A stretch of 64,000 nt of DNA from Promethearchaeia archaeon (lineage in GTDB: Archaea; Asgardarchaeota; Lokiarchaeia; Sigyniarchaeales; SOKP01), in assembly GCA_029856045.1 (NCBI GenBank), contig JAHQWG010000001.1, positions 1-64,000 on the forward strand, given 5' to 3'. Below the pieces are notes generated by a model. The model was not told the origin of the DNA and did no database searches. It was given only the letters and a program-made list of their open reading frames with translations. A program made the translations under genes and the position numbers. Below, in pieces: positions 25,986 through 56,967 of the stretch; position 1 is the first letter of the stretch; each line of letters opens with the position of its first letter.

Positions 25986-26250
25986 TTTATTCGCTATTCA
26001 TTTAGAATAAAGTATGATAAAAATGTATTTAAAAATATCCATAAAACTATAAAATTAAAAAACACAAAAAAATAGTGTATTTTAATTTTGATAGATAGAA
26101 CCGAATTACATATAATAAGTTTAAAATACAATGTATTTAGTAATAAATTTATGAAGATTGTAGTTGTAGATATTGGAGTATTGGGAATTTTGTGGGCTCA
26201 AAACATCCAAAATCTTAAAATATAAAAAAAAATAGGAGTTATTTGTTAAA

Positions 26251-27558
26251 ATGAATGATCTTAGAAGTAAATTGAAAATTTCTGAGGAGGCATTAAAAGC
26301 TCTAAATGATTTTCTTCTAGATAAGGATAATCTTGTTATTAACGACCTTTTTAAAATTATAGACAAGTATGGTGGGGTTGAAGAGATTAACAAAAAGGCG
26401 GAGGAAACGGGAAAGTTAGAAAATTTAATTCAAAAGTTAGAAAAGAAAAATCCATCATATGTAAAAGATCTCGATTGGTTAATTGAGCAGCGTGATAAAC
26501 AAGCTTTTATTAGTATTCCCGAGTATAGACGGAAGATTCTTGGTGATAAAGCTGAAAAGATGGACTTTGATAATACTTTTGCTGTTACTTTAGAGTTATC
26601 TGCATGTCAGTATTTTCCATTTTTAATTGATATTGCAAAACGAGCTATTGAACATAATTTATTAATGCCTCGCCGGATAATTCGTGTTAGAAAAATGAAA
26701 GAGCAGGAGGAAGATGGAGACCTTTTGGCTATGGCTGCTGCTATGCAAATTATTGGTGCGTCATATGTAGAGACACTTGATACTAAGGGTACAGCTCCAG
26801 GTCCTGATGGATTTCCTGTAAATGTTCATCTTGGTGGCCCTGAAACCATTACCGGTTATTTCGGAGGCGTTGGTCAACCAAATGACTTTGCCTTGAAATG
26901 GGTTGATGAGTATCTCTACTATTATACAAATTATGGAATCAAACAAGTTCTCAACGTAAATCCTGGTACAGTGCTTCTTGGTTATTTTCTTTACAAACTG
27001 GGAATTAATAATGAATTCAAAATTTCAGTCTATATGGGGAACGACAATCCTTATGCTTGTCTTTGGACCTTGATGACAGCAAAGTTATTTGCTCGAGAAG
27101 ATGGTACAAGTCCGTTGATCGGTTTCAATCTTGCAAACTCTGTTAATAACCAAACAATTGAAATGGCGGCATATATTAGGAAACCTTTTGGGTTTGAAGA
27201 TATTGTTCGTTTAGAGCATCACATAGTTGAGACATGGAAAAGCATTGTGAGACAACCATATGATCGTCGAGATGAATTAATTGAACTTGCCAAAAAAGTA
27301 AAGAATGTGAGCGCCAAGCATGAGGGGGGTAATGTCGATGTTGAACAGAAACGAGAGCATCCTTCGGACATTCTTGAATATTTCATGAGCAAAGAGGAGA
27401 TTATGGAAGCAAATTTGTGGGAATCTATGCGAATTAACCATCTTGACCGTAATGATGCAGTAAATGCAACTGCCAGGGCTCTTACTGAGAATGGACTTAC
27501 ATTTCTTGCTGCAAAGAATCTTCATCAACTTAAAAAAATTAGAGGGAAAAATAGATGA
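26251..27558 (+). CDS. Uncharacterised soluble enzyme-like protein (435 aa), translationally coupled to the aldolase-Fae fusion
   Basis: Long ORF, GGAG SD, ATGA stop/start overlap with the next gene; Gly/His/Glu-rich motifs (NVHLGG, GYFGGVGQPN, RLEHH, KHEGG). Confidence 0.8.
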   Translation: MNDLRSKLKISEEALKALNDFLLDKDNLVINDLFKIIDKYGGVEEINKKAEETGKLENLIQKLEKKNPSYVKDLDWLIEQRDKQAFISIPEYRRKILGDKAEKMDFDNTFAVTLELSACQYFPFLIDIAKRAIEHNLLMPRRIIRVRKMKEQEEDGDLLAMAAAMQIIGASYVETLDTKGTAPGPDGFPVNVHLGGPETITGYFGGVGQPNDFALKWVDEYLYYYTNYGIKQVLNVNPGTVLLGYFLYKLGINNEFKISVYMGNDNPYACLWTLMTAKLFAREDGTSPLIGFNLANSVNNQTIEMAAYIRKPFGFEDIVRLEHHIVETWKSIVRQPYDRRDELIELAKKVKNVSAKHEGGNVDVEQKREHPSDILEYFMSKEEIMEANLWESMRINHLDRNDAVNATARALTENGLTFLAAKNLHQLKKIRGKNR

Positions 27559-29057
27559 GTAAAAATAAGGGAAAATTTGATTTCCGTCCTTCTGGGGTAA
27601 TTCCTGCGCTAGTTACACCATTCAATAAGGAGGATGAATCGATTAATGAAGAGAATTTACGCAATCTAGTAGATCATCTGATTGAACAAGGAGTAACAGG
27701 TCTCGTTCCATGTGGCACAACCGGTGAATTCGTGAATATGACGTTTGAAGAGCGACTGAAAGTAATCGAGATTGTTGTGGATGAGGCGAATGGGAGAGTC
27801 CCAGTTATTGCAGGAACAGGAGAATCGGGAACTAAACTCGTCATCGATGCTACTAGGGCAGCTACTGATATTGGTGCAGATGCAGCTATCATAGTTACAC
27901 CTTATTATCTTAAGCCTAAAGCAAAGGGTTTATATGATCATTATTTCACGATAACTGAAAAGACAGATATTCCTCTTGTGTTGTATAATATTCCTCCTTG
28001 CACAGGGGTTAATTTACCTTGGACAGTGGTAGAGGATCTTGCCGATATTGACAATATTGTAGCTATTAAAGATTCAAGTGGTGATTACAAATATTTTTCC
28101 GCATTATTGGAAAAAGTAAGTGATCGAATCTCAGTCATTATTGGATGGGATGAGAATGTCTTGGCAGCGCTGGCTGGTGGAGCTGCAGGGATGATTCTTG
28201 CCTCAGCTAATGTAATTCCAAAGATTTGGCTCGAACTTTATAATCATGTGAAAAACAACCGTCTTGAGGAAGCTCAGGTTCTTCAGAAAAAGATTCAAAA
28301 ATTTACTCGAATGATAGTAAGTTCTGGTGCATTAGGACCTAAAGAGTGTTTGAATATGATGAATATTCCTGTTGGTGTTACTCGACAGCCGGTAATAATG
28401 GGTGATACACTTTCCTATGAGCTTTGGGATGAATTTAGAATAGAATTGGAGAAGTTAGGTTTGCTCAAAAAGAAGGAAATTAAAATTGAAGTTGCCGAGA
28501 AAGAACTTACGAGTCGTTTTTATTCTATTGATATTACTCCTCAAATAATTTCAGACTTTAGTTTAAGGGTTGGTGAATCACTCGTAGGAAATAGAGCCGA
28601 ACTTGCTCATGTAGACCTTCTTATTGGTGATAAGAAAGGTCCTGTTGGTGAAGCATATGCTCGTTCCCTAACACATCCTGCGAAAGGACGGGAAGGTCTT
28701 CAAGTGATTCTTGAACCTAACATGCAAGTCAAACCGGCAACAGTAATGATTCCTACAGTTAAGGTCCAGTCGCTACGTCAAGCAAGTCTCGTTTATGGAC
28801 CTGCACAAGCAGCCGTAGGGAAAGCGGTAATGAAATGTGTGGAAGATGGTATTCTTCCTAAAGATGCTTCAGAAGATTTAGTGATTATTGCAAATGTTTT
28901 TGTGCATCCTAGTGCAAGTAGTCGCAAAAGAATTTTTATTAACAACTATAAAGCAACCCGAAACGCTATTCGAAAGGCGATGGAAGGTTTACCAACAGCA
29001 GATGATGGTATAAAGAATGCAGAGAGTGCTCGACACCCATTTAGAAATGATCCATAA
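27555..29057 (+). CDS. Fusion: DapA/NAL-family class I aldolase + formaldehyde-activating enzyme (Fae)
   Basis: N-terminal GTTGE, TPYY, YNIP, IKDSSG (Schiff-base Lys); from about 28565 [39 protein letters not shown] = Fae. Confidence 0.92.
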
Positions 29058-29139: not shown

Positions 29140-32100
29140 TTAATTTATTATTTTTTTTCTTTTCTTCCGAATTCTTATTACAACAATAGATATAACGACT
29201 CCACTAGTAATTCCTCCAGCAATCAGTACGATAAATAGCATCGGAAAATCTCCTTCTCCGTGTGAACTAGCACCTACATATGCCTGAAAACAAGGATCAT
29301 TATATACCTCGTAACCATCCCATTTTGAAAATCCAACACTCATAAAATAAAGTTCTGCATCGAAATTGAAAGATGTACATGATTGTTCACTGTCGCTCAT
29401 AAAAGCACCTGAAAAGGTACTTATAGGTGTCGTAAAAACTGCCACTTTTAGATTTTTTGATGTATTAAAACTCCACGTATAGGGTGATCCTAATTCTGCT
29501 TTAGCAAAAGTATTTTCAGTATCGTTTAATACCATAGAAAATGATTCTGACATTGTCTGATTATCATTATTTATTGTTTGATTATTGTCATCAATTATTT
29601 GCGTTTCTTCGCCATTATCGTATTTATCTTCATAATACATACTAGCTTTTCCACTAAACACATAATAAGTTAAACTAAGTGAGTAGTTCTCAAGATTATT
29701 CATGCCCCCGGGACAATGAGGAGTCCAATCTCCAACCCATTGGTCAATTTTAAACTCTGTGTTATAATATAAGCCATTAACAGTATCATTTCCTTTGAAA
29801 TGTACCATAAAATCTAATTTATCAATCGTAACTTCTACTGGTTTATCTGCAAATCCCTTGAAATCTGATCCATCGACAACACCGTCATACCAATCCCACA
29901 TTGACCTAAAATTCTGATTATTGAAGGGATAAGTTGTCCCATTAATAGTAGAGAATTTTACTCCCCAATCAATATTAGCAGCACCTATGAAAGTATAAAC
30001 ATCAACTGATTTAGTTATGGGTTCATCGTATATCCAATATTCTCTTGTTTCTTGATAATGATCGGTAGCATTGGAAATATCAGGTGTAATGAATGAAACG
30101 TTATCCACATTTGATGGGACAAAGAAATGTGTTATTTCAGAATCCAATCCAATATCCATGAATCCATCATTATCACCATCTTTATAGAGCATCATACCAG
30201 CGTATTCATATCGGTTTGTAACATAAGCTGATTTAATTTCTTGCTTACTGCTATCCGCATAGAAATCCGCCCAGTAATTTTGGTCTAGGTTAAATTCTAT
30301 CCATGTCCATTCATGACTATTATCATTTACCCAATCCCAGTTGTATTTCTCCGCTTCAGCAATAACATCTTCCCAAGTACGGTTCTTTACCATACGGTCA
30401 AGTTCCCAATAACCTGGACGTCCAAAGCCGTTCTCATCAAGAACCGTGTTAATTATTCCATCCATTTCAGCGGAAGTCAACGTCGAGTATGTACCATCTG
30501 CTTTAAGCCAAGTATACTCTTCTGACCATTCATAGGTCCAATTCATATTATTGATACCCATTGAAGAATGTATTTGCATTTCATTACCAAAAACAGATGT
30601 TATTGGATTATATTCGATTTCTAACTCTAAAACATTTCTTGTATGTGAAAATGTATCTTTAGATTCATATGTTCGATATATATAATACTGATCATCTGTA
30701 GTGGACAAATCTCCATCAAGATCAAGGGCACCTTCATCTGTAGTTGTAAACATTCTATATCCCCACATGTTATTTGTTGGAGTCCCAAAAATTAAATTAT
30801 AAGTATCCTTAATTTGTAAGATATCTTGTCTTTGTAAAAACAAACCATATTGATGACCCCAAATTGTTTGATATAACTGTATAAAGCTGTTCTCCATTTG
30901 AACAAGATAATTTTCTGAATCAATCGTAATATTGTATATATTTTTCCAGCTATAAGCTTCCTTTGTCGTCCAATCATAATTAGGGTTCTTGATCACTTTC
31001 CAAGTTCCAGGTACGATTTCAGCTTCAAGAATTGCCATATAATTATTACGCATGAAATTTTCTATGCCCCCCCATTCGTTATAAAATGTAAAATTATTGT
31101 AGAAATAAGTATCGCTTCTAAATGTAAAATTTATTGTGTTTTGACCATCAACTGACCAAAAATCTGGCTCGCTCCAGTTAATTGGGTGGGAGTAATACAT
31201 TCCACTCGTTTCATTATAAAGATTCAAATAATATTCTGTGTTTTGAGGTATATATTCTAAAATAGCTTGATATTCATCAACCAATTCGATAAAAGCATTA
31301 TCCGGGATCTCTAGAAAACTACCATTTAATAAAAGTAGGATTTTCTTTGAATGGTTCCAATATTCCCAACAATTAATTGACAGGATATCCTTCATCCAGA
31401 TTTCGTCATATCCAGTAACATGATTATAAGTTTTTACTGTTAAATTGAAAATTGGAATATAATAGCTTACAACGACATTGATTTGAGTACCGTTTATCAG
31501 TGTTAAGAAAAAGCTTCCGTTTTCAGCATAAAAGTTATCAATTCCAAAATGTTCTAAATCATATTTCTGAGTTACAAGTATTTGCTCTGATAAAACTTCT
31601 ATAGCACCTTCCTTTTTGAATGAGTTATAAGAATGAACACCATAAGGTATAGATTCACCGATAACAGTAAGGTTAAAATTCGGTGTTCCATTAATCATTG
31701 TAACCAAACCTTTATGAATTTCTAAATCTTTAATGATTTCGCTACCTATAACGATATCTCCATTAATTGGTTCTTGATTGCTAAATGTTAAATTCTCCAT
31801 CAAGTATAACTCACCATTAATATTTACAAAATATAAAACAGGAATGACACCATAATGCACCCAATCTCCTTCAGATAAACCGCTAACTGTCGCTTCCATT
31901 TCATAGCGTTCATTTACATTAGCGTTTGGATAAGGTAAAATATACTCTTGATTATCTTTAATCGTATAATAATATGGTCTGATAATATTATCCCAGTTAT
32001 GATGATATCCATTGTATCTGAGAGGTATTAAAATCTCTGATTCATTATAATTTACTCTATATGCTTCCATATAATCCGAGAGATAATGCTCTACTCCATC

Positions 32101-35100
32101 AATAATAACCTTGTTGTTGGTTCCATATTGTTCATTCCAATCACTTGTAACCACAGTATATTTGGTGCCGTCAGTAGCAATTATATACTGTTCTCCATTA
32201 AACCATTGAATCCCTTGTGAAGATATTTCCAATCGAGTAATTCCATCTAAAACAACAAAATATACGCGGTTCTCCCAAGCTCGAGCTTCTTCTGAAAGAG
32301 TTAATTGATCAACATTTTCAATTGTTCTAAGATGGGTGTTTTCAGCAAGCCAATAATTATTAGGATCTCCATAACTATGTATAATATCTCCTCCAGTTTC
32401 ATTCCATTCGGTATATTCCGATATATAATGAAGAGTTCCTTCAATATCAACAAAATAATAAACCGAATCATACACTGCATCATCCCAGTATTGACTTGGT
32501 TTATTCATAAATGTTTGGAATGTGTCAATCGTACTACTATCATTTAAGGTCACTGTATAAATATTAACTTTCTCCCCTTCATAAAATATAATCCTCTCAT
32601 CGGTTGTGGCATCTTTATAATAGAAAAATTCCTGGTTAGTTTGCCAATCCCAATCGTAGTACATTATTAACTCATGAATTTTATTATCCCCATCGGTATA
32701 CTGACTGACATCTAAGGGTCTGGTTTCACCATCAATTTCCACATATGGCATTTCATACATTATATATGAAGAACCATTGATTACTACAAAATTTCCCAAC
32801 TTTGGATCCTCAATATAATTTTTTTCTCCACCATTTTCATAGTAAAAGATATCTTTATTGATCCACTGGAGTGATTTGTACTCACCCCAAGGCTTATCAT
32901 AATCATATCCCCATGCTTCTTTAAGAAATTCAACATCCCAATTATAAGAAGCTTCTGGTGCTCCTTCTAGGATGGTGATATTTAAATCTATAAATGTCCC
33001 CTGAGATGATGTATAATTTGATACATCATTAATTACTAGAAACTCTATTTCTGAAGAAATTTCAGTTTCTTTACCTCTCCAAGGAAGCCAACCTTTTACC
33101 CATTCGCCTTCTTCTTGATTGAATTGATATTCCTGCCAATGCCAATCTGTCACTTCACACCATTCCCAAGAATCATAAGTTCCATTAACCCATATATCGA
33201 TCCCAAGAGTTTCATCATATTCCCAATGCCATCCTTCCTTCTCTACTTTAACCCAGTCTTGGTAAGTGGAATTCTCCCAAACTTGTTTATTAGTACGATT
33301 ATAAGCTTCAAATGTAGTTTCCTTTGACTTAAGATTATAGGTGACATAAATTTCTATCTCTGACCACATATCTATTTCAGTAGTCCATTTTGATTCCCAA
33401 CAATTAAGTCGAAAGCCCAATCCATCAATCGAATTGAAAAAATCACTTGAACCTTCTAATTTATTGCGAATTACGAATGGTTCACCTGGTTTCATGTTAT
33501 AGAATGGTTTATCCCATTTAACATTGGAATTATCTACAATCCATGTATTAACTTGAGGCTGATTGACCCCAATCTGACCACTTGTCATATCGCTATTCCA
33601 ATGTTCGTTTCCATCAACATCAATTAATCCAGTGTCATACCAAATTTGAGTTTCTGATGCTAACAGAATATCCGTGAAATATCCTGTAAATTCAACAATA
33701 GTACGTTGTTCTGTATCTAAATATTTATTAGTACTATATAATTTGAAGAAATTTTCAATTTTATTGCTTATATTCAAATTATTTAAATTAAACACTCTTG
33801 CCCCTCCCATATATGGATCATTTGGATTTTCAGCCCAATATTCAAAACCGACTTTTAAGGAAAACTCATCGGTATTTTCATTGTAAATCAAAAAGAATTG
33901 ATTACTCACCCATTCTTGCCATAAATTTTCAACCCAAACAGGACTTCCACTACTCCAATCCCATCCAGATCTATTTATCATCTGAGAACTTTGCTGCCAA
34001 CAATCTATCCATGTTTTTACTTCATAAAATCCATAAACTTGTTGAGTTGTTGTGAGATTTACGGTAGAATCATAGAGATATGTTCCAGAACTTTCATTGT
34101 AAACCCATCCTCCCATATGAGTCACTTTCTCTTCATGCCATCCTTCAACAATGGAAGTGTTTGTATATCCATTAGGAATGTTAAGTTTTACAAAAATAAA
34201 TCCTGGTGAAATGCTCTTAGATATATTAAAACGAAAAGTCAATAGTTCTTCGATACCTACAGTGTTTGTTTCCTTACCAGCTGAGTCTATCGTTTTTACT
34301 CCCCATTTGCCACCAAAACCCCACCAAGGATCAAATTCTGTAGGCTCTCCAACACCAATCCATTTTTCGGGGCTATCATTTGATTCAAAATCCCATGAAG
34401 AAAAGCCCCACATGTTAATTCTTTCACCTCTATTTGAATATACGCCCATTTCCACCCTATAAGTTCCTAAATAGACCCGTTCGTTGAATTTTCCGTTCCA
34501 TTTAACTTCCCAAGTTTTAGTGAAGTTATTATAAATAGCTTCACATTGATTCCAATTAATGGTATAAAAACTTTCAGGTTCTTCCCATTTCTGAGCAGAA
34601 TTTGGTTCTTCGGCTGACATTTTTAATCTTATTGGCAAAGATTCATATTCATTAGTTTCACTACTAGAAAGTGTACCCTCAAAACCCTCACCCATAGTAT
34701 TATTCTGTTGCCATGAATGAACTTCCCATTGCCAACCTTCCTCATATACAATTTCTTCTGAAGAGCTATAATACCAATCCCAAATTATGCTTGGATGGAC
34801 AACATAAAACATTAGGTTTAAATCTGCCGTAAGAAGTGCATCTCCAAAAAAATTCGGATTATTATTTGTTTCATCATTATATTTATCCATATGCCAGTGA
34901 ATTTCAACAGCTCCTAGACTCCTATTGAATTTACCTTTAAAAATTGCTTCAGGTATAAATCCACGTACTATAAATTCTTCATTAATATTTACGTACTCAG
35001 CGTTTTGATTGATTTCTGTTCCATTTAAATGTTCTATTCGAAATTGTGCTTTGGGTCCAAATTCCCAAGATGAGTCGTCCCAAGTCCAATTATTAGTATA

Positions 35101-35238
35101 TGTTTCATCTATAATATCCCAATTCAACTTAGACTCCGTAATTCCAGGACTTTGAGCAAGAGAAAAACTAGGTAGAAAGTAACTTATTAAAAGCACTGTG
35201 CAAAAAATACTTCCCTTTGTGTATTTATTTAATTTCAT
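29140..35238 (-). CDS. Giant Trp/Tyr/Asn-rich extracellular protein with signal peptide and C-terminal TM anchor (2032 aa)
   Basis: N-terminal signal (..SFSLAQ), C-terminal hydrophobic helix followed by RIRKKRKK, many NxS/T sequons, DLDGD and DGDNDG motifs. Confidence 0.85.
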   Translation of the reverse strand: MKLNKYTKGSIFCTVLLISYFLPSFSLAQSPGITESKLNWDIIDETYTNNWTWDDSSWEFGPKAQFRIEHLNGTEINQNAEYVNINEEFIVRGFIPEAIFKGKFNRSLGAVEIHWHMDKYNDETNNNPNFFGDALLTADLNLMFYVVHPSIIWDWYYSSSEEIVYEEGWQWEVHSWQQNNTMGEGFEGTLSSSETNEYESLPIRLKMSAEEPNSAQKWEEPESFYTINWNQCEAIYNNFTKTWEVKWNGKFNERVYLGTYRVEMGVYSNRGERINMWGFSSWDFESNDSPEKWIGVGEPTEFDPWWGFGGKWGVKTIDSAGKETNTVGIEELLTFRFNISKSISPGFIFVKLNIPNGYTNTSIVEGWHEEKVTHMGGWVYNESSGTYLYDSTVNLTTTQQVYGFYEVKTWIDCWQQSSQMINRSGWDWSSGSPVWVENLWQEWVSNQFFLIYNENTDEFSLKVGFEYWAENPNDPYMGGARVFNLNNLNISNKIENFFKLYSTNKYLDTEQRTIVEFTGYFTDILLASETQIWYDTGLIDVDGNEHWNSDMTSGQIGVNQPQVNTWIVDNSNVKWDKPFYNMKPGEPFVIRNKLEGSSDFFNSIDGLGFRLNCWESKWTTEIDMWSEIEIYVTYNLKSKETTFEAYNRTNKQVWENSTYQDWVKVEKEGWHWEYDETLGIDIWVNGTYDSWEWCEVTDWHWQEYQFNQEEGEWVKGWLPWRGKETEISSEIEFLVINDVSNYTSSQGTFIDLNITILEGAPEASYNWDVEFLKEAWGYDYDKPWGEYKSLQWINKDIFYYENGGEKNYIEDPKLGNFVVINGSSYIMYEMPYVEIDGETRPLDVSQYTDGDNKIHELIMYYDWDWQTNQEFFYYKDATTDERIIFYEGEKVNIYTVTLNDSSTIDTFQTFMNKPSQYWDDAVYDSVYYFVDIEGTLHYISEYTEWNETGGDIIHSYGDPNNYWLAENTHLRTIENVDQLTLSEEARAWENRVYFVVLDGITRLEISSQGIQWFNGEQYIIATDGTKYTVVTSDWNEQYGTNNKVIIDGVEHYLSDYMEAYRVNYNESEILIPLRYNGYHHNWDNIIRPYYYTIKDNQEYILPYPNANVNERYEMEATVSGLSEGDWVHYGVIPVLYFVNINGELYLMENLTFSNQEPINGDIVIGSEIIKDLEIHKGLVTMINGTPNFNLTVIGESIPYGVHSYNSFKKEGAIEVLSEQILVTQKYDLEHFGIDNFYAENGSFFLTLINGTQINVVVSYYIPIFNLTVKTYNHVTGYDEIWMKDILSINCWEYWNHSKKILLLLNGSFLEIPDNAFIELVDEYQAILEYIPQNTEYYLNLYNETSGMYYSHPINWSEPDFWSVDGQNTINFTFRSDTYFYNNFTFYNEWGGIENFMRNNYMAILEAEIVPGTWKVIKNPNYDWTTKEAYSWKNIYNITIDSENYLVQMENSFIQLYQTIWGHQYGLFLQRQDILQIKDTYNLIFGTPTNNMWGYRMFTTTDEGALDLDGDLSTTDDQYYIYRTYESKDTFSHTRNVLELEIEYNPITSVFGNEMQIHSSMGINNMNWTYEWSEEYTWLKADGTYSTLTSAEMDGIINTVLDENGFGRPGYWELDRMVKNRTWEDVIAEAEKYNWDWVNDNSHEWTWIEFNLDQNYWADFYADSSKQEIKSAYVTNRYEYAGMMLYKDGDNDGFMDIGLDSEITHFFVPSNVDNVSFITPDISNATDHYQETREYWIYDEPITKSVDVYTFIGAANIDWGVKFSTINGTTYPFNNQNFRSMWDWYDGVVDGSDFKGFADKPVEVTIDKLDFMVHFKGNDTVNGLYYNTEFKIDQWVGDWTPHCPGGMNNLENYSLSLTYYVFSGKASMYYEDKYDNGEETQIIDDNNQTINNDNQTMSESFSMVLNDTENTFAKAELGSPYTWSFNTSKNLKVAVFTTPISTFSGAFMSDSEQSCTSFNFDAELYFMSVGFSKWDGYEVYNDPCFQAYVGASSHGEGDFPMLFIVLIAGGITSGVVISIVVIRIRKKRKKIIN

Positions 35239-35601: not shown

Positions 35602-37038
35602 TTATTCTTTTAATATTGGATTTCGGGCTGCTAGGACTGCGTCAAGACGTTTTACTGGAGTGTTGAGAGGAGCATTTTTAAGAAGCTCGGGATTTGTTTT
35701 TGCCTCATTATATATATTATTCATCACATCAATGAAATTATCCAATGAAGCTTTTGACTCAGTTTCGGTCGGTTCAATCATCATAGCACCTTTTACTATT
35801 AATGGAAAATAAATTGTTGGGGCGTATAATCCATAATCAAGAATACGTTTTGCAATATCTTCAGTAGTTACATTATTTTCTATTCCCCGGTCTGAAAGTA
35901 CAAATTCATGTTGACAGATTCGATCGTATGGAAGGTGGTATTTTTCTTTTAAAAAAACTCGCAAATAATTTGCGTTTAGAACAGAAATTTGACCCACGCG
36001 TTTTAGACCTTCGGCACCTAAGGCGAGAATATATGCATAAGCTCGTATAATAACTCCAAAATTACCCCAAAAGCACTTAATACGACCAATAGAATTGTTG
36101 GTTTTTTCTCGACATACAAATCCCTGTTCTGTGGCGATAATGGAGGGGTCAGGGAGATATGAAATGAGTTCTTTAGTAACTCCCACAGGTCCAGAACCGG
36201 GTCCGCCCCCACCATGTGGGGTTGAAAAAGTTTTATGTAAATTCAGATGGACGATATCAAATCCCATATCCTTCGGACGGCAGATACCTAACATGGGATT
36301 CAAATTAGCGCCATCATAGTAGCATAAACCTCCATATTTATGTATGATATTCGTGATATCCTTAATTTGACGGTCAAATATACCCAAAGTATTGGGATTA
36401 GTTAACATTATACCCGCTACATCGCCCTGCTGCATTGCAAATTCAATATGATCAAGTGGAACTTCTCCCATATCATTTGAGCGTACTTCGATTATTGAAA
36501 AACCTGCCATTTTTGCAGATGATGGGTTAGTTCCATGGGCGGAATCTGGTACCAAAATTTTATTTTTTTTAAGATTTTTATTCTCGAAATATTTTTTCAT
36601 TATTAAAATTCCGGTTAATTCTCCATGAGCTCCCGCAGCAGGTTGAAAGGTAAATCCATCCATACCGGTAATTTCTCTGAGCATCTCTGAGAGATGGTGC
36701 ATTAGTTCAAGAGCTCCTTGATTTTCTTCTTGAAGAGGATGTATTTGGGAAAAAGCTGGAAGTCGAGCGATCACCTCATTAATCTTTGGATTATATTTCA
36801 TAGTGCACGAACCAAGCGGATAAATTCCTGAATCTATCCCATAATTTCTCCTACTCAACTCGGTATAATGGCGGACAATTTCTACCTCTGGAATATCGGG
36901 TAAGGGTAAATCTTCTCGTTGAAAAAATGAGGGTATTATTTCGAGTAAATCAACTTTATCTATATCCATTTCAGGAATGAAATTATGTTGAGAGCGTTTA
37001 GTACCTTTGTTAAAAATCAAAGTCAGGTTTGAAGTCAT
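35602..37038 (-). CDS. gcvPB: Glycine dehydrogenase subunit 2 (P protein beta)
   Basis: YPLGSCTMKYNPK, SAHGTNP, HLNLHKTFSTPHGGGGPG. Confidence 0.97.
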   Translation of the reverse strand: MTSNLTLIFNKGTKRSQHNFIPEMDIDKVDLLEIIPSFFQREDLPLPDIPEVEIVRHYTELSRRNYGIDSGIYPLGSCTMKYNPKINEVIARLPAFSQIHPLQEENQGALELMHHLSEMLREITGMDGFTFQPAAGAHGELTGILIMKKYFENKNLKKNKILVPDSAHGTNPSSAKMAGFSIIEVRSNDMGEVPLDHIEFAMQQGDVAGIMLTNPNTLGIFDRQIKDITNIIHKYGGLCYYDGANLNPMLGICRPKDMGFDIVHLNLHKTFSTPHGGGGPGSGPVGVTKELISYLPDPSIIATEQGFVCREKTNNSIGRIKCFWGNFGVIIRAYAYILALGAEGLKRVGQISVLNANYLRVFLKEKYHLPYDRICQHEFVLSDRGIENNVTTEDIAKRILDYGLYAPTIYFPLIVKGAMMIEPTETESKASLDNFIDVMNNIYNEAKTNPELLKNAPLNTPVKRLDAVLAARNPILKE

Positions 37039-37041
37039 TGT

Positions 37042-38382
37042 TTAATTCCCTCCTATGTTTTTGTTAGAAGCTTTTTCAGCTGCATGAATGAATTTTTCTA
37101 TATCCTCCCGAGAATTGCTCTCAGTCACACATACAAGTATAATATCTTTCATATCAGGAAAATACTTCGATATCATTAGAGGTGGAAGCAGATTTTCCTG
37201 TTTGCATTGTTCAATTAGTTCATGAACATTTGGACATTTAACTAAAAATTCATTATATGTTGGTTTCTTATTTAATATTTGATAGCCTGGAATGGTTGCT
37301 AATTTTTGCTTAACATAATGAGATTTTTGAAAATTTTGAAGAGCAATCTCTTGAAGACCTGTTTTTCCTAATGAAACGAGATAAATTAACGAGGCTAAAG
37401 CACACAGTGCTTGGTTCGTACAAATATTTGAAGTGGCTTTCTCACGACGTATATGTTGTTCGCGGGTTTGTAAAGTTAATATGAATCCCTCCCGTTCTCC
37501 ATTGATTTCATTAGTTTTACCAATCAACCGACCCGGCATTTTACGCAAATATTTTTGCTTAGATGCAAAAATTCCTAACCCTGGACCACCAAATGATGGT
37601 GAAATACCAAAAGATTGTCCTTCAGCAACAAAAATATCAATATCGGATTTTCCTGGAGGTTTTAACACGCCTAGGCAAGTAGGATCGGTCATTACTTGAA
37701 TAATTAAACATTTGGGAGCTTTATCTCTAATTTTTTGAACTAATTCTGTGATATTTTCGATGCCACCAAAAAAATTTGGACTCTGGAATAGAACAGCTGC
37801 AACACTTTCATCTAATTTTGAGATGAGTGCATCCTCCATAACAACTTCAAAATGGATGTCTTGCCCCCAGCAATAGGTCTTAACAACTTCTACATATTCC
37901 GGATGAATTCCTTCAAGTAAAATAATTTTTTTTTTCTTTGCTGCTACAGTTGCCATAATTGCAGCTTCAGCTAGAGCAGTGGAGCCGTCATACATACTCG
38001 CATTAGCAACATCCATCTGGGTAAGCCGTGTAATTGCTGTTTGATACTCATAAATGGCTTGTAAATACCCTTGACTGGCTTCTGCTTGGTAGGGGGTATA
38101 GGCAGTATAAAATCCCGAAAGGTTGATTACGAAGTCCACCAATGAAGGAATATAATGGTAATAGCAACCGGCTCCTAGAAAAGAACTTGAATAAATTTTA
38201 TTTTTACGTGAAAGTTCTTCTAATCGCCGTAAAAGATCTGGTTCAGACAAACCATGAGGTAGGTTTAATTTTTTTAATAATAAATCGGCTGGAATATCTT
38301 GAAATAACTCCTCTAAGGAATTAATACCGATGGAAGTTAACATCTCGGTAATTGTTTCTTTATCATGAAGTATAAAATCCAT
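37042..38382 (-). CDS. gcvPA: Glycine dehydrogenase subunit 1 (P protein alpha)
   Basis: YTAYTPYQAEASQG, ANASMYDG, TREQHIRREKATSNICTNQ. Confidence 0.97.
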   Translation of the reverse strand: MDFILHDKETITEMLTSIGINSLEELFQDIPADLLLKKLNLPHGLSEPDLLRRLEELSRKNKIYSSSFLGAGCYYHYIPSLVDFVINLSGFYTAYTPYQAEASQGYLQAIYEYQTAITRLTQMDVANASMYDGSTALAEAAIMATVAAKKKKIILLEGIHPEYVEVVKTYCWGQDIHFEVVMEDALISKLDESVAAVLFQSPNFFGGIENITELVQKIRDKAPKCLIIQVMTDPTCLGVLKPPGKSDIDIFVAEGQSFGISPSFGGPGLGIFASKQKYLRKMPGRLIGKTNEINGEREGFILTLQTREQHIRREKATSNICTNQALCALASLIYLVSLGKTGLQEIALQNFQKSHYVKQKLATIPGYQILNKKPTYNEFLVKCPNVHELIEQCKQENLLPPLMISKYFPDMKDIILVCVTESNSREDIEKFIHAAEKASNKNIGGN

Positions 38383-38442
38383 TCTATCGATCTCATTTAG
38401 ATGGTAATAGTTGGATTAATCTAATAAATAAAAAAAATACTA

Positions 38443-38838
38443 TTAATCTTCCTCTTTTTCGATCATTTCTTGATATATTTCAACCGAGAGAAGATTTTTT
38501 ATTTCATCTGGGTTTGATATTTTAATTTTCATTATCCAGCCCTCCCCGTACGGTGAAGAATTCACAAATGCTGGATTATCGGCGATGTTTTCATTTATCT
38601 CAATAACTTCTCCCGTTAATGGGAAAAATAATTCACTTACCGCTTTAACGGACTCAATTTCACCAGCAACACTGCCTTTTTCTAACACTACTCCTATTGC
38701 AGGAAGTTCAACATATACAATATCTCCAAGTTTATGTTGTGCGTAGTCAGAAATTCCAACAGTTGCCATATCTCCATCCATTCTAACCCACTCGTGAGTT
38801 GGTGCATATTTTAAATCTGCAGGAAATTTAAGATCCAT
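38443..38838 (-). CDS. gcvH: Glycine cleavage system H protein
   Basis: THEW, LGDIVYVELP, IESVKA (lipoyl Lys), PYGEGW. Confidence 0.97.
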   Translation of the reverse strand: MDLKFPADLKYAPTHEWVRMDGDMATVGISDYAQHKLGDIVYVELPAIGVVLEKGSVAGEIESVKAVSELFFPLTGEVIEINENIADNPAFVNSSPYGEGWIMKIKISNPDEIKNLLSVEIYQEMIEKEED

Positions 38839-38876
38839 CCTTATTCACATTAATCTTGATTTTTATTCAAATTTTA

Positions 38877-39983
38877 TTATATATTACGATAAAATGGTGT
38901 GGGAACTACTTTTGCTTTAAGAAGTTTATTCCGAATTTCAACGTCAAATTCCGTCCCGATGGAGCTATATTGTATTTCAACGAGAGCTAAGCCAATTGTC
39001 TTTTTAAGCGTTGGTGAGAATCCCCCAGAAGTTACATATCCGATTTCTACCCCATTCTTAAATAATTTATAGTTTTCTCTAATGATTCCCCTATCCAAGA
39101 GATTTAATCCAACAAGAATTCGTGATGTCCCCTCTTTTTTTTGGCGAATAAGAACTTCCTTACCTATAAAATCAATTCCTTCTTTTGGTTTTACAAGCCA
39201 GTTAAGCCCCGCTTCAATCGGGGTTATTGAATTAGTAAGTTCATGACCATACAAGCAGTAACAAGCTTCTAAACGCAAAGAATCACGCGCCCCTAAACCT
39301 GCAGCACCAGCTCCTGTTTTTATAAAAGCATTCCAAATTGTTTCAGCGTATTTATTTTCAAAAGAAATTTCAAAACCTCTTTCACCAGTGTAACCAGTTC
39401 GGGCTATGAATGCAGGAATATCACATAAATTACAAAAAACAAAATAAAACCGATTCAAAGTGGATAAATCTGTATCAACGAGTGGCGCAATTAAGTCATC
39501 AGATTTCGGCCCTTGAAATGCTAATCGACATCTTTCTTTCGAGACATCCTTAACTTTTACTCGAAAGTTTCCTATATGCTTATTAATCCATTGAAAATCT
39601 TTCTCTACATTACTTGCGTTGACAATCATCCGAAATCGTTCCGGACTCTCCTCATAGTAAACTAAATCGTCTACTACAGTCCCATTTTCATAACACATGC
39701 AAGAATATTGTCCTTTTGACTTTTCTAATAATTTTAAATCATTCACCATCAAATATTGAAGGAATGGTATCACATCTGGACCTTCAAAAATAAATTCTCC
39801 CATATGAGAAATATCAAAAACACCTGCGAGCGTTCGAACGGTTTCATGTTCTTTTAAAATGCTTTCATATTGGACGGGCATCAACCATCCAGCAAAATTC
39901 ACCATTCGCGCCCCTAATTTTACATGAGTTTCATATAAGGGGGTTTTTATTTCATTTAGGTCTTCTTTAGTAATAAATTCCAC
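38877..39983 (-). CDS. gcvT: Glycine cleavage system aminomethyltransferase T
   Basis: [27 protein letters not shown]. Confidence 0.97.
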
Positions 39984-46124: not shown

Positions 46125-46988
46125 ATGAGAGAGAATTTTAAGCCAAATATTATTAAAAGCATCAATTTTTTTTCTGAATTTAAAGAATGGTATTATAAAA
46201 TAATTACAGATTTTAACTTTGATGAACAGAATGATAAGCTTGGCAGAGATTTATTATTAAATATTTTACTTGATAGTGAAAATTATGAAAATTTTCATCA
46301 AAATTTGGAGAATATAAAAAAATTAATCCAAAAAAATAAATTTATAACCATATTTGGATGCGGTCCTTCTTTAGAAAAAACTTTTGATAAAATCTCTCAA
46401 AGTGGTAAAAGTAAGTTTCCAATAAATCAATTAATTATTGCTATAGATGGTGCTGCCGTATTTCTTGATGAAAAAGGAATAAAACCAAACCTTATTTTTA
46501 CTGATCTTGATGGATTTTTACCAGAAAAATTTTCTTATTTTAGAAAACTTTCAAATTATATAGTTATACACGCCCATGGAGATAATGTAGATATTTTAAA
46601 AAGAATATCAAATGAGGTAAAAATGGCGAATAATATTATTGGAACAACGCAAGTTGAGCCAAGATCTATCATTTTGAATCCAGGTGGATTTACAGACGGA
46701 GATAGAGTTCTCTATTTTCTTAAAAATTTCATTCGACCTAATCAAAAAATTTTTTTTATTGGTATGGATTTTGGAGAAGTTGTTGGTCGTTATTCTAAAC
46801 CAGAGTACTCAGAAAATCAAAAAGCAAAACCAAATAAATTAAAAAAACTTCAATATGCTGAAAAATTATCAGAGTGGATCATTAAAAAAATAAAAAATGA
46901 GTTTTATTTCATTAATTCAAAAATTTCATCAAATTATGTTCAGATTATTTCAATTAAGCAATATTTAAACTTCTTTAATATTTTATAA
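46125..46988 (+). CDS. mptE: 6-hydroxymethyl-7,8-dihydropterin pyrophosphokinase (MptE, DUF115)
   Basis: GCGPSL, IAIDGA, TDLDG, HAHGDN, GTTQ, GGFTDGDR, GMDFG..VGRYSK. Confidence 0.92.
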   Translation: MRENFKPNIIKSINFFSEFKEWYYKIITDFNFDEQNDKLGRDLLLNILLDSENYENFHQNLENIKKLIQKNKFITIFGCGPSLEKTFDKISQSGKSKFPINQLIIAIDGAAVFLDEKGIKPNLIFTDLDGFLPEKFSYFRKLSNYIVIHAHGDNVDILKRISNEVKMANNIIGTTQVEPRSIILNPGGFTDGDRVLYFLKNFIRPNQKIFFIGMDFGEVVGRYSKPEYSENQKAKPNKLKKLQYAEKLSEWIIKKIKNEFYFINSKISSNYVQIISIKQYLNFFNIL

Positions 46989-54584: not shown

Positions 54585-54690
54585 AGAGAGAGAAATTAAA
54601 TACTATTAAATTCAAGAATCTAATGATAAAATTTAATATATTAAGAAAATAAAAATAGAATTATCTAAATTCAAGAAGAGTGTGAATTTA

Positions 54691-55998
54691 ATGTCTCAAA
54701 AAAGAAAGATTATTGGCTCAGAAAGTCAAAAAGATATAGTAAAAATGTATTCCACTTATGTAAACAAATATAAAGCATCTTTTTTTAAAAAATTGGGTTT
54801 TGGAATCGTTCAAGGTGAGAGAGATCGCTTTCACGTGAAGATGCTAGAAGGAACAAGGAAGGGGCAACCTCCATTAGATTTAATCGATTGCAGAACGACT
54901 GGAGGAGTTTTTAACTTAGGGCATAGACATCCAGAAATAATAAAGGCATTAAAAGATGGTATTGATGCAGGTCTAGATATAGGAGATCATCATTTAATAA
55001 GTGAGCAAAGATCTTTACTCGCAAAAAGATTGGCGGAACTTCTTCCCGGAGATATTTCCAAAACTCAGTACTGTGTTGGAGGTGGGGAAGCAATAGATTT
55101 AGCCTTAAAATTAGCCAGAGCAATTACACAAAGGAAAAAGATTATTTCTGCAAATAGAGCTTATCATGGAGTAACAGGGTTTGCTTTAGGGGCCTGTGCT
55201 TCAAATTTTAAAGACATTTTTCTATGGGGACCATCTGATTTTGTACAAGTTCCTTTTGGGGATATTGATGCAATAACTAAAGTAATAGATGAAGATACTG
55301 CCGCAGTGATTTTTGAAACCATTCCGGCTACTGGAGGAATTTTAATTGCTCCCGAAGGATATTTTGCTAGAGTAAGAGAGTTATGTGATGATAAGGGAGT
55401 CATAATGATTTCTGATGAAGTTCAAACAGGTTTAGGTCGAACGGGAGAGCTCTGGGCAATTTTTGGGGGATTATATGAACATGAAAAAGTTGTTCCTGAT
55501 ATAATTGTACTTGCAAAAGGAATGAGCGCTGGTTATTATCCCATAGCCACTTGTAGTTATAAACCTTTTATTGAAGAAGTATTTAAAGATGATCCTTTCC
55601 TACATATAAGCTCTACTGGGGGTTCAGAGCTTGGTTGTTATGTTTGTAGGAGGATGCTTGATATAATTTCTCAACCTAAATTTTTAGAACATGTTAGAAA
55701 GATGGGAAGGGAATTTAGAGATGGTTTGAACGAGCTTAAAGAAAAATATTCTAATATCATTGTAGATGTACGAGGAAGGGGGCTGATGTGGGGGATTGAG
55801 TTTATTAATGAGGTTTATGGGCAAGTATTTACGGTTTATATGATTAAGAATGGTATATTTGCAGATTACTGTGGGAATAATAAAGCAACAAATAAGTTAA
55901 TGCCCTCATTAATTATTGAATCTGAAGATATTGATGAAGTTTTAAAACGTTTAGATATTGCGTTAAGTGAATATCCTAAAAAAAAACAAGAGGTGTAA
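54691..55998 (+). CDS. Class III PLP-dependent aminotransferase-fold enzyme
   Basis: FNLGHRHP, GGEAID, YHG, DEVQTGLGRTG, PDIIVLAKG, RGRGLMWG. Confidence 0.92.
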   Translation: MSQKRKIIGSESQKDIVKMYSTYVNKYKASFFKKLGFGIVQGERDRFHVKMLEGTRKGQPPLDLIDCRTTGGVFNLGHRHPEIIKALKDGIDAGLDIGDHHLISEQRSLLAKRLAELLPGDISKTQYCVGGGEAIDLALKLARAITQRKKIISANRAYHGVTGFALGACASNFKDIFLWGPSDFVQVPFGDIDAITKVIDEDTAAVIFETIPATGGILIAPEGYFARVRELCDDKGVIMISDEVQTGLGRTGELWAIFGGLYEHEKVVPDIIVLAKGMSAGYYPIATCSYKPFIEEVFKDDPFLHISSTGGSELGCYVCRRMLDIISQPKFLEHVRKMGREFRDGLNELKEKYSNIIVDVRGRGLMWGIEFINEVYGQVFTVYMIKNGIFADYCGNNKATNKLMPSLIIESEDIDEVLKRLDIALSEYPKKKQEV

Positions 55999-56004
55999 AT
56001 ATAA

Positions 56005-56967
56005 ATGAAAATAAATACAGATCTAATTGTGAAATTAGAGGAGACGATTGATACTATACATCCAGAACGAGGGGAGATTCCAATAAAAATCCTTGGTTTT
56101 GGAGAAATAAGTTTGGTATTTGAACTCGTGGATGATCCTGAAAAAGTTGCTTATAAAAGGCTTCCAATCTTTGACAATGAGAAACAAGTAAAAAGACATA
56201 TTAATGCATATAATGAGTATAATAGAATCTTAAAAGAAGATATTGGTTTAAATGTTCCAGATTATGGTGCTTTATGGTTAAAAGGTCCAACAGGAGGGAT
56301 TGTATTATATTGTGCTCAAGAAAAAATTCCTCCCGAATCAATTGGAAATAGAATTATTCACGAACTCAATAATAATGACGTAAAAAAACTAGTTCTGTTA
56401 GTTATGAGAGAATTAAAAAAAGTTTGGGCGTTTAATAAAGATAATGTGAATATTAATGTTGGTCTCGATGGACAAATCTCCAATTTTTCACTTTTGGGAT
56501 ATGATCCTTCTAATCCAAAAATATCTGAAAATGCAAAATTGCTTTATGTAGATACAAGCACGCCTATGTATAGAATAAATGAAGTTGAAGCAATGGAAGC
56601 TATTCTATTCCTAAAAAGTGCCCCGTCGTTTATAAGATGGCTTCTTAAAGCCTTATTTCTTCAAGAAGTGATGGATCGTTACTATGATTGGCGTCTAGTA
56701 ACAATTGATTTAATTGCAAACTTTTTCAAGGAGCAGAAGCCCGAAATAATACCAGGATTATTAAAAGTAGTTAATAAATTCTTTGCTGATGAGGCTAATG
56801 AATTCAATATTGAGCCAATTACTTTTGAGGAGGTTTATTCTTATTATAAAAATGATAAAATGATCTGGGTAGTATTTCAAGCTTTTCGGAAGTTTGACCG
56901 ATTTCTCAAGACAAAATTATTTCGAAAGAAATATGATTTTTACCTTCCTGAAAAAATTGAACGTTAA
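56005..56967 (+). CDS. DUF6206-type protein with protein-kinase-like motifs
   Basis: LGFGEIS (Gly loop), VAYKR, LDGQISN (DxxxxN), YVDT; 6 nt downstream of the aminotransferase. Confidence 0.65.
   Translation: MKINTDLIVKLEETIDTIHPERGEIPIKILGFGEISLVFELVDDPEKVAYKRLPIFDNEKQVKRHINAYNEYNRILKEDIGLNVPDYGALWLKGPTGGIVLYCAQEKIPPESIGNRIIHELNNNDVKKLVLLVMRELKKVWAFNKDNVNINVGLDGQISNFSLLGYDPSNPKISENAKLLYVDTSTPMYRINEVEAMEAILFLKSAPSFIRWLLKALFLQEVMDRYYDWRLVTIDLIANFFKEQKPEIIPGLLKVVNKFFADEANEFNIEPITFEEVYSYYKNDKMIWVVFQAFRKFDRFLKTKLFRKKYDFYLPEKIER

Follow-up and report, generated by a model that had tools for sequence, protein, structure and literature searches.

The first 64,000 nucleotides of contig JAHQWG010000001.1 (assembly GCA_029856045.1), here called the window, come from a Promethearchaeia archaeon, one of the Asgard archaea. 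On their forward strand lie two genes that overlap end to start. The first encodes P0002, a protein that every source labels hypothetical; the second, P0001, joins a class I aldolase of the DHDPS family to a formaldehyde-activating (Fae) domain. I propose that P0001 is a bifunctional enzyme that interconverts pyruvate plus methylene-tetrahydromethanopterin (methylene-H4MPT) and 4-hydroxy-2-oxobutanoate (HOB), and that it is tied to homoserine metabolism. The proposal is a prediction, one that I consider quite possible though somewhat short of probable. The features on which it draws are collected in Table 1.

Table 1. Features of the two-gene operon (positions in the window) and of related loci in other genomes. 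Labels for families (f), genera (g) and loci (L) are internal to this analysis.
Feature	Position	Strand	Basis or carriers
AT-rich intergenic region, putative promoter of the two-gene operon	25986..26250	.	sequence, neighbour annotation
P0002, 435 aa; helical domain 1-103, TIM barrel 107-426	26251..27558	+	no Pfam match
P0001, 500 aa; DHDPS-family class I aldolase, linker, Fae domain	27555..29057	+	open reading frame, translation, Pfam, NCBIfam
Aldolase domain, residues 12-281	27588..28397	+	PF00701 (E 1e-74), alignment to solved DapAs, motif table, clade
C-terminal aldolase-fold helices and linker of about 30 residues, residues 282-338	28398..28568	+	between the two Pfam envelopes
Fae domain, residues 339-496	28569..29042	+	PF08714 (E 6.5e-57), TIGR03126 above cut-off
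P0002-aminotransferase-Hom-AOR-PatB cluster	L014:970-7500, L015, L016, L023, L024		f22, f5, f24
Q genes	L035:5316-6260 (-), L036:2840-3784, L037:7001-7951, L038:7001-7939, L039:3185-4126, L042:72-1067		
Tandem pairs of fusion genes	L008:6528-9479, L009:6715-9398, L010:8544-11449, L030-L033, L036, L037, L039-L042		
Gene of 815-868 aa adjoining tandem pairs	L030:5948-8398, L032:1209-3662, L033:1165-3612, L040:959-3565, L041:7206-9806		

The frame of P0001 is uninterrupted over all 500 codons. Its first half belongs to the DHDPS/NAL superfamily: PF00701 extends over the barrel, and K172, Y144 and GTTGE (54-58) align with their counterparts in solved DapAs. PYY is found at 116-118, Y144 lies within YNIPPCTG and the Schiff-base lysine, K172 (28068-28070), within IKDSSG. 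C149 (27999-28001), also part of YNIPPCTG, stands opposite the arginine of YNVPSRT in the M. jannaschii DapA structure 2yxg, the column of R138 in E. coli DapA, the arginine that binds the carboxylate of aspartate semialdehyde. After the Schiff-base strand comes GWDE (197-200), which is GHDE in relatives of P0001 and GDD in the separate DapA of the same genome. The residues between the two domains align with the same stretch in all fusions.

The second half scores 192.4 bits against PF08714 (cut-off 27), over positions 1-158 of a profile of 159, and 194.5 bits against TIGR03126, one_C_fae (cut-off 118.05). All the canonical Fae motifs are present (the histidine of AHxDL, GPAQ, FVHP and HPF), aligned with those of the genome's own Fae-Hps: AHVDL with H352 (28608-28610), presumably the catalytic residue by its likeness to the M. 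extorquens enzyme, GPAQAAV (415-421), FVHP (449-452), NNYKAT (463-468) and ARHPF (492-496). Judged by these motifs, both domains look catalytically intact. A sequence-only reading of the window had already described one open reading frame that joins a complete DapA/NAL-family aldolase to a complete Fae domain. Pfam, NCBIfam and the open frame bear this out, and every motif it quoted (GTTGE, YNIPPCTG, IKDS, AHVDL, GPAQAAV, HPF) is found in the translation.

A search of domain architectures shows that the fusion recurs widely. Proteins of 495-500 amino acids that combine the two Pfam domains make up more than 120 clusters (formed at 90% identity), at 78-97% identity. The closest relatives of P0001, at no more than 84% identity, bear the names Promethearchaeota, Hodarchaeota and Thorarchaeota, which marks the source as an Asgard archaeon. 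About a dozen further fusion clusters, down to 35% identity, came from searching 1.84 billion representatives, and the source names of these remoter clusters include Korarchaeota/Thermoproteota and Anaerolineae. The fusion is present in 90 of the 201 genomes that make up the Asgard sample used throughout, in 5 of 151 genomes of a second archaeal phylum, in one Bathyarchaeia contig and in one Chloroflexi genome. It is not an assembly artefact, since it appears in so many clusters and its open frame recurs in so many Asgard genomes. Its distribution across these groups means that the fusion is old and widespread. No paper on a DHDPS-Fae architecture was found in the literature searched.

What reaction might such a protein catalyze? 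Pyruvate would form a Schiff base on K172 of the N-terminal aldolase, with Y144, T55/T56 and Y117/Y118 placed as in DHDPS and NAL. With the arginine that binds aspartate semialdehyde gone, a small uncharged aldehyde would fit, and the aldolase may therefore accept formaldehyde. The Fae domain would interconvert formaldehyde plus H4MPT and methylene-H4MPT. In one direction the enamine would attack formaldehyde delivered by Fae; in the other, Fae would trap the formaldehyde released by cleavage. The net reaction would be pyruvate + methylene-H4MPT + H2O <-> HOB + H4MPT, a hydroxymethyl transfer that follows the logic of serine hydroxymethyltransferase (SHMT) and PanB and would depend, as in Fae-Hps, on joining a formaldehyde-activating module to an aldolase. 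From HOB, the keto acid that corresponds to homoserine, a transaminase would then give homoserine, and P0002, the co-translated TIM barrel, may act on a neighbouring homoserine-related intermediate. Substrates, direction and any channelling are what I infer here from the domains, motifs, paralogy, distributions and neighbourhoods observed. The genome (3.34 Mb, rated 100% complete) probably possesses one-carbon (C1) metabolism based on H4MPT, since it contains the pathway marker Mch (PF02289, 365 bits). Judging by SHMT and PanB, thermodynamics would plausibly permit the reaction in either direction.

The connection to homoserine comes from the company that the fusion keeps and avoids. Homoserine dehydrogenase (Hom) was not found in this genome by a PF00742 search that was positive in 14 of 14 control genomes, while Asd (TIGR00978, 341 bits), DapA, DapB and two threonine synthases are all present. 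Across the Asgard sample, fusion and Hom occur together in 13 genomes, the fusion without Hom in 77, Hom without the fusion in 61 and neither in 50, a naive odds ratio of 0.14 with kinship ignored. Families rich in the fusion are poor in Hom (2/43 in f7, 0/19 in f12 and 0/3 in each of f13, f21 and f27), and those that have no fusion are mostly rich in it (f3, f4, f5, f8, f14, f19, f22). Within the window's own family, a hand count finds Hom in 7 of the roughly 29 genomes that have the operon and in 10 of the 12 that do not. Of the five carriers in the second archaeal phylum, four retain an intact Schiff-base lysine and have no Hom; the fifth has Hom, and its pair of fusions has lost both lysines. 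Because of this anticorrelation, together with the absence of Hom and the retention of threonine synthase, synthesis of the homoserine skeleton from pyruvate and a C1 unit is the more likely direction in this genome.

If that is so, then Asgard archaea and some other anaerobes may have a natural route that bypasses Hom, in which HOB would be made from pyruvate and methylene-H4MPT, a transaminase would convert it to homoserine for threonine and methionine, and P0002 would perform the next step. I rate this wider scheme as possible, on balance unlikely. One candidate for that next step is homoserine activation, a reaction to which no known gene can be assigned in most Asgard genomes. That a route from pyruvate and formaldehyde through HOB to homoserine is feasible has been established in E. 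coli, where a homoserine cycle carries flux by means of promiscuous class II aldolases (PMC8879981).

In the window P0002 adjoins the fusion: its stop overlaps the start of P0001 in the sequence ATGA and the two genes are translationally coupled. An AGGAG ribosome-binding site lies ahead of its start, and the putative promoter region is divergent from a gene resembling FAD amine oxidoreductases. The family is large, 63-99% identical across Asgard archaea, and searches of Pfam, NCBIfam, PDB sequences and ESM Atlas features gave nothing. An AlphaFold model built from an alignment of 74 sequences is confident (pLDDT 87.4, pTM 0.87), an earlier one from 20 sequences (pLDDT 61.7) having been too poor for use. 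Model and alignment together place invariant Glu, Asp, His and Lys residues at the ends of barrel strands. Fold searches return generic TIM barrels only, the best by Foldseek being class II fructose bisphosphate aldolase (E 6.6e-4) and DAHP synthase, with a VIA-align Z of about 12 against many unrelated barrels, and so no family can be named. The thought, raised by tandem fusions described below, that P0002 might be a degenerate paralog of the fusion was rejected: BLAST finds no similarity between the two, and the model of P0002 shows one TIM barrel of another kind, preceded by a helical domain.

P0002 is found in 103 of the 201 Asgard genomes. The fusion follows it directly in f1, f2 (g10) and f27. 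In f22, f5 and f24 it is followed in order by an Asp-type aminotransferase, Hom, an aldehyde:ferredoxin oxidoreductase (AOR) and a PatB-type C-S lyase; the position of the AOR beside Hom suggests aspartate semialdehyde as its substrate or product. In f7 (L017, L018, L019, L025) P0002 comes after the S-component of an energy-coupling factor (ECF) transporter (PF07155) and is divergent from a threonine synthase of about 500 amino acids (NF006050, 318.6 bits, cut-off 303), and in f2 (g9) it is preceded by a very divergent DHDPS-like gene. Three independent gene contexts thus tie P0002 to enzymes of homoserine and threonine. It lacks the fusion in 36 genomes, 25 of which have Hom, usually in the same cluster. 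P0002 itself shows no anticorrelation with Hom in the Asgard sample (35/68/39/59, in the order given above for the fusion). The idea that P0002 replaces the homoserine kinase ThrB is only speculation, and its distribution gives no support: ThrB is found in 15 of the 201 genomes, with or without P0002, four f22 genomes having both proteins and f12 neither.

Elsewhere a second unannotated family stands in the position of P0002. Genes of family Q (315 amino acids, no Pfam match) immediately precede single or tandem fusions in f12 and f9 of the Asgard archaea, in Bathyarchaeia, in Chloroflexi and in the second archaeal phylum, and members from Asgard archaea, Bathyarchaeia and Chloroflexi share 65-70% identity. 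When the profiles of Q and P0002 are compared by hhalign (probability only 25%, E 7.5e-4), three consecutive strand-loop motifs of the barrel align, and remote homology of the two is possible. In the wider scheme described above, Q might likewise perform the next step. At the Chloroflexi locus (L037, genome G201) Q and a tandem pair are flanked by a gene of the transaldolase/FSA family, an AOR, a class II aldolase and an FGGY kinase.

The tandem pairs, 13 in number, come from Asgard families f7 and f9, Korarchaeota, the second archaeal phylum, Chloroflexi and others. Single-copy fusions keep every Fae motif, as judged from P0001, the forms in f27, f12 and f13 and that of Bathyarchaeia. In the pairs, the motifs are divided. 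The upstream gene, A, has lost the histidine of AHxD and the C-terminal ARHPF tail and has kept GPxQ; the downstream gene, B, has kept the histidine, FVHP, NNYKA and ARHPF and has lost GPxQ. Complementary loss of this kind suggests that A and B form a hetero-oligomer with composite Fae sites, as would be expected if these sites lie between subunits, which I take to be the case in the M. extorquens structure. The Schiff-base lysine is lost from both aldolases of the L010 pair and from B only in L031. A gene of 815-868 amino acids adjoins the pairs in f7 and in the second archaeal phylum; the one f7 copy scanned has no Pfam match, and the 815-residue protein upstream of the f7 pairs does not resemble family Q. 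In f7 the next gene after the pair encodes an M20 peptidase.

An alternative view is that the same chemistry serves catabolism: a C4 compound would be converted to HOB and cleaved to pyruvate and formaldehyde, which Fae would trap as methylene-H4MPT for oxidation. The HOB would come from homoserine through a transaminase or from some other precursor made by P0002. Archaeal Fae-Hps works in the formaldehyde-releasing direction, and a toxic product would find an obvious trap in a fused Fae domain. Genes for AOR, an enzyme typical of the oxidation of aldehydes in fermentation, occur both in the P0002 cluster of f22 and f5 and beside the Chloroflexi fusions, and the ECF S-component ahead of P0002 in f7 hints at an imported substrate; these neighbours favour catabolism in some lineages. 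The coexistence of fusion and Hom, in 13 Asgard genomes and in the Chloroflexi genome, would also be easy to understand. A catabolic enzyme, however, has no reason to be anticorrelated with a biosynthetic one, and threonine synthase would be left without a source of homoserine in carriers that have no Hom, such as this genome. I think the catabolic reading rather unlikely.

It may be instead that the substrates are different: another 2-oxo acid as donor, or a larger hydroxy-aldehyde as in aldolases of the NAL and KDG type, with Fae serving in oligomerization, in regulation or with another pterin. The GxDE after the Schiff-base strand presumably resembles what is found in the sugar-acid aldolases of the family, and would count in favour of this. 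So would the loss of half the canonical motifs from each Fae domain of the tandem pairs, the persistence of one pair that lacks both aldolase lysines, and the failure to find Mch in the Chloroflexi carrier. Against it, no Fae motif is missing from P0001 or from the other single-copy forms, and the persistence of the fusion in four or more phyla speaks for a reaction in which the two domains are coupled. A small C4 product is in keeping with the missing arginine and with the association with homoserine genes. Some other pair of substrates is an improbable explanation on this evidence.

The databases offer a third answer, that P0001 is a true DapA that happens to carry a Fae domain. It does score 231.7 bits against TIGR00674, above the equivalog cut-off of 206.15, and the closest solved structures are DapAs. 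The genome, however, already encodes a canonical DapA on contig 47 (YNVPGRT, GDD; TIGR00674, 329.7 bits) with DapB directly after it, and it is that gene, not P0001, which dapB adjoins. In a maximum-likelihood tree of the aldolase domains of fusions and 123 stand-alone relatives, the fusions form one clade (SH-aLRT 98), apart from a clade of 37 sequences, 36 of them with the arginine, that holds the genome's own DapA. Theirs is a signature of their own, YNIPQ[CV]TG ... IKDSSG ... GHDE, and the column of the arginine is occupied by Cys, Val, Leu or Thr in nearly all of them and by Ala or Tyr in two. With the arginine replaced by C149, the DapA-DapB pair elsewhere and the clade separate, P0001 is not the DapA of the lysine pathway, as the doubts of the sequence-only reading foresaw; I put very little weight on the contrary view, and the databases are almost certainly wrong to call P0001 a 4-hydroxy-tetrahydrodipicolinate synthase.

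The genome likewise has a canonical Fae-Hps of its own, on contig 37. The Fae domain of the fusion is a third Fae copy beside it, and the Fae half of Fae-Hps is 41% identical to that of P0001. The Fae-Hps model NF009833 gives P0001 161.4 bits (cut-off 274), over profile positions 2-161, the Fae part only; there is no Hps domain.

Two substrates had been named as candidates for the aldolase in the earlier reading. HOB gains indirect support from the links to homoserine metabolism. Ketopantoate, made from 2-oxoisovalerate and methylene-H4MPT by a fusion standing in for PanB, is most improbable: the chemistry is analogous, and this genome and its genus lack PanB, but PanB (PF02548) occurs in 149 of the 201 Asgard genomes, among them nearly all of f7, f5 and f22 and the fusion-carrying genera g2 and g4 of f1, most genomes with the fusion or its operon have it as well (37/43 in f7, 10/11 in g2, 14/16 in g4), and genus g3 of f1 has neither, so that the phyletic complementarity to be expected of a substitute is absent. 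The supposed tie to an mptE gene in the window is not supported either, the MptE-like gene (46125-46988) being 17 kb from the fusion with unrelated genes between.

Other parts of the window may be noted briefly. An open reading frame of 2032 codons (29140-35238, reverse strand; no Pfam match at E 1e-5) lies directly downstream of the fusion and convergent with it. A complete glycine cleavage operon, gcvT, gcvH, gcvPA and gcvPB, a system linked to C1 carriers, lies 6.5 kb from the fusion (35602-39983, reverse strand), and a class III aminotransferase (54682-56967, forward strand, for the two genes) is followed after 6 nucleotides by a DUF6206 protein.

Several observations weigh against the synthesis of HOB by P0001 and must be set beside those that favour it. 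The anticorrelation with Hom rests on related genomes, so that the counts overstate their independence, and the two genes do occur together in 13 of them. The lack of Hom in all four lysine-bearing carriers of the second phylum is weak evidence, since the base rate of Hom there is only 52/151 (34%). Families f20, f17 and f15 have threonine synthase and neither Hom nor the fusion, from which it follows that the phylum contains another source of homoserine, or auxotrophs. The Chloroflexi genome, whose tandem fusions are intact, has Hom, and no Mch was found there; role and pterin may therefore differ between lineages. In the window, no aminotransferase lies beside the fusion. The genome makes aspartate semialdehyde in any case, and it is not obvious what would be gained by exchanging the single step of Hom for a new route. 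Finally, a search of the genome found neither ThrB nor a candidate homoserine kinase of the PGM type. Threonine synthase is present in 177 of the 201 Asgard genomes and ThrB, as noted, in few; the known path from homoserine to threonine is thus incomplete in the phylum, this genome included.

Should the proposal prove true, a central amino-acid precursor would be made by formation of a C-C bond from a C1 carrier, a reaction that in the literature found is described only in designs for synthetic methylotrophy (PMC8879981). For Asgard archaea, which of all known archaea stand nearest to the eukaryotes, metabolic reconstructions would change, since the gene is there routinely annotated as DapA. 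Engineers of C1 assimilation would gain a dedicated natural enzyme, and two large, highly conserved and unannotated protein families would be placed among the enzymes of amino-acid metabolism. Even should the exact substrate proposed prove mistaken, the name in the databases misleads and inflates the calls of the lysine pathway in genomes that carry the fusion. What is new here is the complementary A/B pairs, family Q, the alternative neighbourhoods of P0002 and its confident fold, the bacterial carrier and the rejection of PanB.

How does P0001 compare with systems already known? DapA (TIGR00674; 2yxg, 1dhp) is the closest family by sequence and shares with it both the fold and the catalytic residues that deal with pyruvate: Lys, Tyr and Thr-Thr. 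It differs in having Arg in place of Cys149 and GDD in place of GWDE, and P0001 falls in a separate clade with no dapB beside it. PanB and SHMT resemble P0001 in the proposed reaction, a reversible transfer of a hydroxymethyl group between a methylene-pterin and a carbanion acceptor, while their folds and mechanisms are unrelated to it.

Fae-Hps (NF009833), found in methanogens and other archaea, offers a parallel in design. In it, too, Fae is fused to an enzyme of aldolase type for which formaldehyde is a substrate or product, and free formaldehyde is exchanged with the H4MPT pool, as is predicted for P0001. The partner is an Hps of the orotidine monophosphate decarboxylase fold, whereas that of P0001 is a Schiff-base pyruvate aldolase of the DHDPS family, and the order of domains is reversed, Fae being C-terminal in P0001. 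The carbon skeleton is a hexulose phosphate in the one case and would be a C4 keto acid in the other. Fae joined to an aldolase that handles formaldehyde is thus a known theme, and the route would be a new natural one if the pathway is confirmed.

A parallel in chemistry is the HOB aldolase of the synthetic homoserine cycle, E. coli RhmA and related enzymes, which condenses pyruvate with formaldehyde to give HOB, followed, as proposed for P0001, by transamination (PMC8879981). Those aldolases are metal-dependent class II enzymes, promiscuous, supplied with free formaldehyde and placed in an engineered host (PMC8879981). P0001, by contrast, is encoded in a natural genome, has an aldolase of class I and is predicted to be dedicated to the reaction and coupled to a C1 carrier.

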